Source of the DNA: a virus | Lineage: Duplodnaviria > Heunggongvirae > Uroviricota > Caudoviricetes | Strand: one strand, 5' to 3' | Length of the DNA: 5,844 nucleotides | Virus record (IMG/VR): IMGVR_UViG_2713896791_000002 | Shown here: positions 1,070 through 4,051 of the stretch, one piece after another | How the letters are laid out: the number at the start of each line of letters is the position of its first letter | How positions within the stretch are numbered: position 1 is the stretch's first letter | Program-made: the position numbers and the translations under genes | The notes under the pieces: model-generated | Told to the model about the DNA's origin: nothing | Seen by the model: the letters and a program-made list of their open reading frames with translations, nothing else | Database searches by the model: none

Positions 1070-1138
1070 CGGTTTTCTCTGCTGGCGCAGCAGGTGCCAG
1101 TTGTTCAAGCTGGCGTGCGGCAATATTGTCTCTGATTT

Positions 1139-1154
1139 CTGTTGTCGTCAACAG
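1139..1154. promoter_or_regulatory. Inverted repeat CTGTTG-tcgt-CAACAG, candidate operator for the ParD (RHH) antitoxin
   Basis: Perfect 6-bp arms with a 4-bp spacer, read directly. It overlaps the putative -35 of the parDE promoter and a -35-like TTGACG on the opposite strand. RHH antitoxins typically autoregulate through such palindromes. Confidence 0.4.
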
Positions 1155-1169
1155 GCAACGTGCTATCAT
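1142..1169 (+). promoter_or_regulatory. Putative sigma70 promoter of the parDE cassette
   Basis: -35-like TTGTCG (1142-1147), 16-nt spacer, -10-like TATCAT (1164-1169), about 35 nt upstream of the parD ATG; SD GAGG 8 nt before the ATG. Both hexamers are imperfect. Confidence 0.35.
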
Positions 1170-1204
1170 CGAATGGTGTTCTATCCTACTCCGTGAGGTT
1201 TACC

Positions 1205-1462
1205 ATGCGTACAACCCAACAATTCAGCATTACATTAACTAACGAAATGGCTGACATGGTGCGCGCCCGTGTGGCTTCCGGTGCCTATGCTTCAGAAAGC
1301 GAGGTCATTCGTGAAGGGCTTCGCGCACTGAATGAGCGCGATAAAGCAATCGAAGCGTGGTTAACGCATTCAGCCGCCCCCTCTCTTGATTCTATCCGCG
1401 AAAATCCAAACAACGGACGCTCCATTTCACAGGTTCGCGCCGCGATTCGATCCGGGAAGTAA
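1205..1462 (+). CDS. parD: ParD-family antitoxin (ribbon-helix-helix), type II toxin-antitoxin system
   Basis: MRTTQQFSITLTNEMADMVRARVASGAYASESEVIREGLRALNERDKAIEAWL... matches the ParD-antitoxin pattern (N-terminal RHH strand, then the ASGxYASxSEVIREGLR helix). ATG at 1205 is preferred over the track start at 1142 because of the SD and typical length (85 aa). Lies 5 nt upstream of a ParE/RelE-like ORF. Confidence 0.8.
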   Translation: MRTTQQFSITLTNEMADMVRARVASGAYASESEVIREGLRALNERDKAIEAWLTHSAAPSLDSIRENPNNGRSISQVRAAIRSGK

Positions 1463-1467
1463 TCTGC

Positions 1468-1767
1468 ATGACATATGAAGTCATCATTACTCCTGAGGCC
1501 GAACAACAAATAATCAACCTGCACAGGTATATAACGGAGAAAGCAGGGAACGTCATTGCTGACAATTATGCCAATGCGCTTCTTGATTATCTTGATGGGT
1601 TTTCTACATTCCCGCATCGGGGCAATAAACGCGATGATATTCGCCAGGGGATGCGGGTAACTCATTTCCGCCACAGAACGATTATTGCTTTTGCCGTTGA
1701 TAGCAGAAAAGTCTTTATTGTCGGTATCTATCATGGTGGGCAAAGTTATGAAACCGATTTCTTATAA
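1468..1767 (+). CDS. parE: ParE/RelE-family toxin, type II toxin-antitoxin system
   Basis: 99-aa ORF MTYEVIITPEAEQQIINLHRYI...RTIIAFAVDSRKVFIVGIYHGGQSYE, typical ParE/RelE size and C-terminal motif, immediately downstream of parD in the canonical antitoxin-toxin order. Confidence 0.8.
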   Translation: MTYEVIITPEAEQQIINLHRYITEKAGNVIADNYANALLDYLDGFSTFPHRGNKRDDIRQGMRVTHFRHRTIIAFAVDSRKVFIVGIYHGGQSYETDFL

Positions 1768-1847
1768 ACTTTTACCCACATCATTCCGGTGTTAGAATTA
1801 ACCGTCCGCCCCCTCTCTTACTGGCGGATTCGTAGGCTATATAAATC

Positions 1848-1884
1848 AAAGATCCCGGCTCATGTTTATGTCGGGATCTTTTTT
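1848..1884. terminator. Rho-independent terminator-like hairpin, potentially bidirectional, between the convergent units
   Basis: aaa-GATCCCG-(14-nt loop)-CGGGATC-tttttt: 7-bp stem followed by T6 on the plus strand (ends parDE) and preceded by A3, so T-rich after the hairpin on the minus strand too. Lies between the parE stop (1767) and the last minus-strand ORF (1892). Confidence 0.55.
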
Positions 1885-1891
1885 CGGCGAT

Positions 1892-3794: not shown

Positions 3795-4018
3795 TTTGTT
3801 CTTCCTCTTCGTCTTTTATTTCGTGATATGAATAATTGCAGTAGTTAAAGAAAATATCTTTTGCTTCGTCATGTATTTCATCAGGCGTCGCATCNNNNNN
3901 NNNNNNNNNNNNNNNNNNNNNNNNNNNNNNNNNNNNNNNNNNNNTCATCCACTTCGAATTCATCCTCGAAATCTCCACCGGCTATTCCCGTTTCAATAAT
4001 TATTTTAAACTTTCGCAT
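3787..4018 (-). CDS. Small acidic hypothetical protein spanning the 50-N gap (about 75 aa if the gap preserves frame)
   Basis: ATG at 4018-4016 directly after the SD-hairpin element gives MRKFKIIIETGIAGGDFEDEFEVDD...; after the gap the track frame reads ...DATPDEIHDEAKDIFFNYCNYSYHEIKDEEEEQNG. The two parts are in different frames across exactly 50 N, so the true gap length is probably not 50 or there is a frameshift. Confidence 0.4.
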
Positions 4019-4051
4019 TTAACTACCGCCCTTTCGGGCGGCCTCCTGACA
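4019..4051 (-). promoter_or_regulatory. Conserved SD + GNRA-tetraloop hairpin translation-initiation element, copy B
   Basis: Minus strand: UAA-U-GUCAGGAGG-CCGCCC-GAAA-GGGCGG-UAGUUAA-AUG. The whole 33-nt intergenic space between two small ORFs is SD, a perfect 6-bp GC stem with GAAA loop, then 7 nt to the AUG. Confidence 0.5.

Follow-up and report, generated by a model that had tools for sequence, protein, structure and literature searches.

Which DNA element controls the parDE toxin-antitoxin cassette of a lambdoid prophage? The question is raised by a 5,844-nucleotide stretch of tailed-phage DNA (IMG/VR record IMGVR_UViG_2713896791_000002; the whole stretch is called the window here), in which a plus-strand parD-parE pair is preceded by a perfect inverted repeat, CTGTTG-n4-CAACAG, at 1139-1154. 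This repeat does overlap two divergent -35-like hexamers, as the sequence-only reading of the window had noticed, and that reading took it for the ParD operator, from which both the cassette and the leftward genes at 175-1069 would be repressed. Comparison with the ParD family probably puts the control site some 30 bases downstream of the repeat. Most likely the operator is a family-conserved pseudo-palindrome at 1171-1191, over the predicted transcription start, and the palindrome at 1139-1154 is probably not the control site.

A search with ParD returned 2648 relatives, and the upstream regions were read in 80 loci of about 3.2 kb each from very diverse bacteria (Proteobacteria, Acidobacteria and other phyla). 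Nearly all of the 80 loci carried a dyad, TAGGATTnAATCCTA / GTAGGATTnAATCCTAC, whose perfect consensus is GTAGGATTAAATCCTAC. The best match to TAGGATTNAATCCTA in each locus was located 15-35 nt before parD in 79 of the 80, and it was almost always the sole match; 32 matches were perfect and 29 had one mismatch. Downstream of parD, 64 of 71 open reading frames (ORFs) were homologues of the window's ParE, with the antitoxin gene first, which suggested that the cassette travels as a unit with the motif. In these loci the likeness to TTGACA was highest at a distance of exactly 17 nt upstream of TAGGAT. The left half of the dyad would thus be the -10 hexamer, and the element would work at the DNA level and not as an RNA hairpin. 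The N-terminal strand of ParD, MRTTQQFSITL, was almost invariant among the relatives. R2, T4, Q6 and T10, which were invariant, alternate with hydrophobic residues, so they would face the DNA in a ribbon-helix-helix fold. These results provide a precise operator prediction for a very large ParD subfamily, namely TAGGATTnAATCCTA with its left half serving as the -10. A full-text search of the accessible papers for the string found no report of this dyad.

An operator model was then built from 70 distinct sites, with an information content of 1.1-1.8 bits on both halves. The sole strong match to the model in the window was at 1171-1191 (GAATGGTGTTCTATCCTACTC, 14.8 bits), the next unrelated site scored 2.7 bits, and the maximum over 200 shuffles was 4.2 ± 3.4 bits on average. 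In the window's copy the right half is perfect and the left half is a variant, TGGTGTT; an intermediate left half, TAGTGTT, was found in ArgO145, in Izhakiella and in several alphaproteobacterial loci. Among 11 enterobacterial relatives, no upstream segment was better conserved than the block GAATAGTGTTCAATCCTACTC. A new extended -10 (TGcTATCAT) is found 10 nt upstream of the element in this enterobacterial lineage, and the element itself spans roughly +1 to +13 of the transcript predicted from a start at about 1175-1177. RNA polymerase would be blocked at 1171-1191 by a pair of ParD dimers, perhaps with ParE as a bridge between them. We infer ParD binding and autorepression from the dyad, which is conserved in 79 of the 80 loci and overlaps the -10 and the start site, and from its copy in the window. 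Scanning viral contigs with the operator variant gave mostly near-identical E. coli copies and chance matches without parD.

Two variants of the element were also observed among the relatives. In some Acidobacteriaceae loci (L029 and L030, 1461-1485; L056, 1458-1482) a further direct half-site precedes the element by 10 bp (TAGGATTnnnTAGGATTnnATCCTG), a hint that one helix face can hold more than two ParD dimers. An Erwinia locus (L043, 1462-1476) has a symmetric variant, TATGATTAAATCATA, with both halves altered together, a hint that the dyad symmetry itself may be under selection.

The upstream regions of eleven enterobacterial relatives (68-96% ParD identity) were aligned to see what is conserved around the palindrome. 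The invariant part of the stretch GTTGTCGTCAAC was GTCGTCAA, i.e. the minus-strand -35 TTGACG, in 10 of the 11 relatives. In the window this hexamer (1151-1146) is followed by an 18-nt spacer and AATATT (1128-1123), and TTGACG with TATATT at 17-18 nt spacing was found wherever isrK was present. In seven relatives, Rfam searches matched isrK, the c4-a1b1 target and the C4 antisense RNA immediately beyond this promoter on the minus strand, and antirepressor genes come next; in one of these loci (L084) the isrK match begins 7 nt past the -10 TATATT. This arrangement indicated that the leftward promoter is that of an immI-like operon neighbouring parDE, similar to IsrK of Salmonella Gifsy-1 and the C4 RNA of P1/P7 immI. 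The window differs from these regions in lacking the RNAs and the antirepressor. No isrK or C4 match was found in it even at E values up to 10, only the promoter hexamers remain, and they face a 90-amino-acid ORF and DUF968.

The leftward promoter of the window is thus best read as a relic, or a captured promoter, of an IsrK/C4-antirepressor module. The TTGACG noted by the sequence-only reading is real and is the best conserved part of the stretch, though it appears to come from this other module. A recombination joint at 1119/1122, at a microhomology (GCTGGCGTGCG) common to both partners, would have fused the promoter to the 5' leader of the 90-amino-acid ORF, and the joint falls at the predicted leftward start site. 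The locus documents a promoter relic of an IsrK/C4-antirepressor operon that was joined by recombination to unrelated phage genes.

The stretch GTTGTCGTCAAC may also be considered as the operator of another regulator, unrelated to ParD, that was brought by the IsrK/C4-antirepressor module. The P1 immI promoter is under the control of an immunity repressor, and GTTGTCGTCAAC was kept chiefly in relatives with isrK and C4 beside parDE. However, the invariant part coincides with the -35 TTGACG, which alone is sufficient to explain its conservation. The variation does not preserve symmetry, no candidate regulator was identified, and the module to be controlled has gone from the window. We consider this explanation unlikely.

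On the model of the sequence-only reading, ParD would bind CTGTTG-n4-CAACAG and repress the parDE and leftward promoters together. In its favour, the repeat is perfect, it overlaps both -35-like hexamers, the centres of its half-sites are separated by 10 bp, a spacing that two ribbon-helix-helix dimers could fit, and the inner GTTG-TCGT-CAAC was retained in several relatives. However, dinucleotide shuffling yielded a perfect 6+6 repeat by chance in 15% of cases for the 135-nt intergenic region and in 7.6% for the 35-nt stretch around the repeat, and the 181 nt that include it hold three further repeats of 6-7 nt. The palindrome was perfect solely in the window's lineage. In 10 relatives only 2-5 of the 6 arm positions were paired, and changes in the arms were never compensated (CAATAG with CTGTTG, TTATCG with CAACAC). 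Two Salmonella relatives have no repeat at all, yet they keep the downstream element. Against the family operator model the palindrome scored -23 to -34 bits, so it does not resemble the site upstream of orthologous parD genes, and the DNA-facing residues of the ParD beta-strand are invariant in a family whose conserved site is different in sequence. The TTG...CAA symmetry arises because two opposed -35 hexamers overlap back-to-back, and the palindrome is probably mostly a by-product of this overlap. Closer E. coli variants (88-95% identical) were too alike to tell 1139-1154 from 1171-1191. Taken together, ParD binding at the palindrome is quite improbable. The locus is a worked example of how a tidy promoter palindrome can stem from back-to-back -35 hexamers and not from an operator.

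The proposed joint repression of the leftward genes was weakened as well. The candidate operator at 1171-1191 lies about 20 bp beyond the leftward -35, which is too far to occlude it, and the promoter belongs to the IsrK/C4 module; direct co-repression by ParD is therefore unlikely. An indirect effect can be imagined. The two divergent -35 hexamers overlap by 2 bp, so the rightward and leftward promoters should compete, and RNA polymerase would probably occupy one of them at a time. Through ParD-ParE shut-off of the rightward promoter, the toxin-antitoxin state could then determine how much of a constitutive leftward transcript the lysogen makes, an idea we regard as a long shot. The leftward promoter points at the 90-amino-acid ORF, DUF968, RusA and then genes towards the late region, so if the idea were true, toxin-antitoxin status would be coupled to late-region expression or induction of the prophage.

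Several observations weigh against the explanation based on 1171-1191 and the relic promoter. One of the 200 shuffles reached 15.3 bits, matching the score of the window's site. The window's copy has 4 mismatches to the 15-nt consensus, and three other sites in the window match at least as well when position is ignored. With TGGTGTT as its left half the copy is not symmetric, and ParD might bind it more weakly or in another arrangement. The stretch GTTGTCGTCAAC was fairly well conserved in the isrK-bearing relatives, and a second protein-binding site may exist there. The promoter scans provide consensus matches only, and the E. coli copies are too alike to gauge constraint on the fused leftward promoter. 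It is very unlikely that 1171-1191 is a promoter or leader feature only (a -10 with discriminator, or an mRNA-stabilising 5' stem-loop) and not a ParD site: the left half is a -10 in most of the family and the element of the window is within the predicted 5' leader, but a -10 leaves the equal conservation of the right half AATCCTA and the dyad symmetry unexplained, transcription in most loci would begin within the right half so that an RNA hairpin could not form, and the motif co-occurs with ParD across phyla, where the cassette is the only shared factor. On balance, we hold it likely that the whole explanation is right: the cassette is real, ordinary and annotated, and the palindrome gives way to the better-supported site at 1171-1191.

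The placement of this site agrees with that of a studied system. Vibrio cholerae parDE2 (PDB 7R5A) also has a ribbon-helix-helix ParD, a ParE-fold toxin and the antitoxin gene first, and its proteins show weak sequence or fold matches to ParD and ParE of the window. Its footprinted operator extends from -21 to +13 and takes in both the -10 and the start site (PMC10776004), the same position as that predicted for 1171-1191. The V. cholerae operator contains three GGTA motifs bound in a 6:2 ParD:ParE complex (PMC10776004). In contrast, the family site of the window consists of one dyad of 15-17 bp, TAGGATTnAATCCTA, to which a few relatives add a direct half-site, and the ParD N-terminal strand MRTTQQFSITL is different. 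Other solved ParDE pairs gave matches to the ParD N-terminal domain and to the ParE model (Caulobacter ParDE1, 3KXE; Mesorhizobium ParDE3, 5CEG/6X0A; M. tuberculosis ParDE1, 8C24; P. aeruginosa ParDE, 6XRW). The sequence identity of their ParE proteins to that of the window is just 10-24%. We know of no operator resembling the TAGGATTnAATCCTA dyad for these pairs.

PaaR2-PaaA2-ParE2 is a three-component system with a separate regulator, PaaR2, and an antitoxin that is not of the ribbon-helix-helix type. Its ParE-fold toxin (PDB 5CZF/5CW7) comes from a lambdoid prophage, CP-933P of E. coli O157:H7, and resembles the window's ParE at a template-modelling (TM) score of about 0.7; unlike this system, ParD of the window has its own DNA-binding domain. 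The K-12 Qin relBE-hokD genes and hok of vB_EcoS-689R5 occupy the same slot as the cassette in the nin-like region, just beyond a DUF968 (ydfU) gene and a small ORF. They differ in toxin (RelE is an RNase, and Hok is a type I membrane toxin) and share the strand of the phage operon, whereas parDE of the window is opposed to it.

The claim that the plus strand holds a complete parD-parE pair was borne out, and the identities of the two genes were established. ParD scored 32.1 bits against PF03693 (cut-off 21) and 53.8 bits against TIGR02606 (cut-off 46.2), and ParE scored 40.4 bits against PF05016 (cut-off 23) with the full profile covered. The RefSeq names, assigned by PGAP, are ParD family antitoxin and RelE/ParE family toxin. 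The ParD N-terminal domain (residues 3-51) matched solved ParD chains (E = 4e-4 to 6e-3). No PDB match was found for ParE by sequence alone. When its AlphaFold model was used (predicted local distance difference test score 83.7), the 23 best PDB matches were all ParE-type toxins (TM 0.66-0.73), and RelE, YoeB and YafQ ranked below them at TM 0.5 or lower. Both genes are intact, on the same strand with the antitoxin first, and the parD stop (1462) is close to the parE start (1468). A ribbon-helix-helix ParD-family antitoxin, a toxin of the ParE branch of the RelE/ParE fold and a close two-gene operon are the features of a ParD/ParE type II system.

By family membership, ParE would be a gyrase-poisoning toxin, the C-terminal part of ParD would neutralise it, and the N-terminal ribbon-helix-helix domain would repress the operon. 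The cassette may serve to stabilise the prophage or to exclude other phages, or it may do no more than persist selfishly. PADLOC, which has no model for the pair, gave no match for ParD or ParE, and a literature search found no paper on this parDE cassette. The pair is already named in RefSeq and PHROGs and is an ordinary toxin-antitoxin moron. Such morons are commonplace in lambdoid prophages, and little here is surprising to specialists. The coordinates of all the features are collected in Table 1.

Table 1. Features of the parDE region, in coordinates of the window.
Feature	Position	Strand, size or placement	Evidence
parDE cassette (moron): divergent promoter region, parD, parE, 3' untranslated region, terminator	1120..1890	771 bp	Flank comparison with vB_EcoS-689R5 and ArgO145
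-10-like AATATT, leftward promoter (TATATT in relatives)	1123..1128	-	Promoter scan, alignment
Inverted repeat CTGTTG-TCGT-CAACAG	1139-1144 / 1149-1154	.	Present; not beyond chance; symmetry not kept in relatives
-35-like TTGTCG, parDE promoter (weakly constrained)	1142..1147	+	Promoter scan; sequence and distance to the -10 vary in relatives
-35 TTGACG, leftward promoter, putative relic of the IsrK/C4-antirepressor promoter	1146..1151	-	Identical in 10/11 relatives
Extended -10 TGcTATCAT, parDE promoter	1161..1169	+	Promoter scan; TGnTA kept in enterobacterial relatives
Probable ParD (or ParD-ParE) operator, copy of TAGGATTnAATCCTA	1171..1191, core TGGTGTTCTATCCTA 1174-1188	+	Family motif, top model match
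Shine-Dalgarno-like GTGAGG	1193..1198	+	6 nt before parD ATG; GAG invariant in alignment of enterobacterial relatives
parD, 85-amino-acid ribbon-helix-helix antitoxin	1205..1462	+	PF03693, TIGR02606, RefSeq WP_001260977.1
parE, 99-amino-acid ParE-type toxin	1468..1767	+	PF05016, RefSeq WP_000220601.1, AlphaFold model matches
Terminator-like hairpin AAAGATCCCG-n14-CGGGATCTTT	1848..1881, T run 1879-1884	Between convergent parE and small ORF	Sequence, fold

The source of the DNA was identified by genome comparison. In E. coli O26:H11 strain 11368 the window matches a lambdoid prophage at 99.9% (NC_013361.1, 1230299-1236242, reverse strand), and at least 80% of it was matched in 124 further complete genomes. 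The cassette itself was found in 328 of 5426 complete E. coli genomes, chromosomal every time. In RefSeq the minus-strand chain runs from replication genes through DUF1627, DUF977, DUF4406, Ead/Ea22, HNH and a 114-amino-acid ORF; past parD and parE on the opposite strand, it continues with the 90-amino-acid ORF, DUF968, RusA and DUF1133, on to tRNA genes. This gene order places the cassette in the nin-like part of the early-right operon and pointing against it. The interruption of a minus-strand gene chain by two plus-strand genes, described before, was confirmed.

The boundaries of the cassette were set by two comparisons. The phage vB_EcoS-689R5 has the order Q, RusA, YdfU/DUF968, 90-amino-acid ORF, a hypothetical gene with hok, small ORF and 114-amino-acid ORF. 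It is homologous to the window over 257-1119 and 1891-2371, with a different insert between the same flanks. In ArgO145 the cassette is elsewhere, near int, and only the right flank is in common with the window; homology begins from 1122. The joints are thus at 1119/1122 on the left and 1890/1891 on the right, and the unit includes the promoter region and the hairpin terminator. K-12 Qin has ydfT-ydfU-rem-hokD-relE-relB at the equivalent place beyond ydfU, and the slot beyond DUF968 (ydfU) appears to be a recurrent landing place for toxin-antitoxin modules. The PHROGs class of both ParD and ParE is 'moron'. The label of moron given by the sequence-only reading holds for this 771-bp unit, which is present or absent between identical flanks of related phages and has a promoter-like site and a T-run hairpin inside it, both of them consensus matches only. 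Together with the operator and the relic promoter, an autonomous ParD/ParE type II moron at 1120-1890 is the probable explanation of the locus.

The rightward promoter-like site consists of TTGTCG, a 16-nt spacer and TATCAT (1164-1169) with TG ahead. The distance from the palindrome stretch to this -10 differs by indels of 0-5 nt among the enterobacterial relatives, which suggested that the plus-strand -35 is poorly constrained and fits an extended -10 promoter. parDE would be transcribed against the flow of the early-right operon from a promoter relying mainly on the extended -10, and the transcript would be ended by the hairpin at 1848-1884. Promoter-like matches in 700-2400 were not enriched (3 versus 2.2 ± 1.4 expected). 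Folding of 1768-1900 gave -35.5 kcal/mol (z = -2.6). The terminator scan missed the hairpin because its loop is 14 nt. The hairpin is flanked by A's and T's, so this putative terminator, located inside the cassette boundary, may act in both directions. The promoter-like sites and the post-parE hairpin had all been named before, and each of them is present in the window.

Partial forms of the cassette were found in related phages and bacteria. At least 47 phage records match only 1122-1481 of the window, at 80-90% identity. Many Stx2a-converting phages (PA2, VT2phi_272, F765, phi349 and others) keep the promoter, the operator and parD. In such phages (Stx2a_JNE122398; L002, 3085-3342 and downstream) parE gives way after about 7 codons to unrelated DNA encoding a lipoprotein-like ORF and a HigA-like helix-turn-helix ORF, and the C-terminal, toxin-binding part of the orphan ParD has diverged. 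The orphan ParD and HigA of phi346/phi349 were noted as unexplained in a 2025 paper (PMC12502783). In Yersinia (L086 and L087, 2764-3053) parE is split into pieces of 42 and 57 amino acids, and in Y. enterocolitica (L093, 2501-2758) parD is alone. The operator-like element upstream was retained in both cases, and the toxin appears to be decaying in Yersinia. Toxin-antitoxin modules cluster around the cassette in relatives: VapBC is directly upstream and Fic downstream in a Salmonella locus (L092, 1776-3587), and hok/sok is within 1.5 kb in L084, L088, L092 and L095 (Rfam sok, 88-104 bits).

Four other candidates were considered and rejected. The sequence GGTTCGAATCCCGAC, left of parD in ArgO145, has the look of a tRNA attachment site, but ARAGORN found no tRNA and Rfam assigned it to the isrK/C4 RNA. 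An apparently covarying hairpin left of the promoter (GCCAG/CTGGC in the window versus the relatives) was dismissed, as the one in the window is part of the leader of the 90-amino-acid ORF, on the other flank; it is also found in a phage without parDE and is similar only at the recombination microhomology. A minus-strand ORF (MIARCLLTTT...) over the promoter has Phage_ASH matches in relatives, but its indels do not keep the triplet frame, and an RNA gene occupies the region there. ORFs over the isrK/C4 RNA genes match Phage_ASH (PF10554) on the minus strand (L084, 2192-2445; L086, 2221-2445; L001, 3812-3994), and this family may be partly built on translations of RNA genes. ON470583 labels the 90-amino-acid ORF 'toxin to Rem'; BLASTP found no similarity between it and K-12 Rem, and it is a positional analogue only.

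A few minor features of the window were also observed. An unannotated hydrophobic ORF of 27 codons lies at 1892-1975 on the minus strand and has no PHROG match. Its ATG overlaps the stop of the 114-amino-acid ORF (ATGA), its end is exactly the right joint of the cassette, and an ORF is annotated at the equivalent position in vB_EcoS-689R5. Runs of N at 207-256 and 3895-3944 and single N's scattered in 583-650 break the DUF968-like ORF and a small ORF; these positions are masked or unread, not biological. Two minus-strand ORF starts are closely preceded by a 26-nt near-repeat at 2903-2928 and 4024-4049 (CCGCCCTTTCAGGCGGCCTCCTGA and CCGCCCTTTCGGGCGGCCTCCTGA), which consists of a hairpin and a Shine-Dalgarno-like GGAGG on the minus strand.

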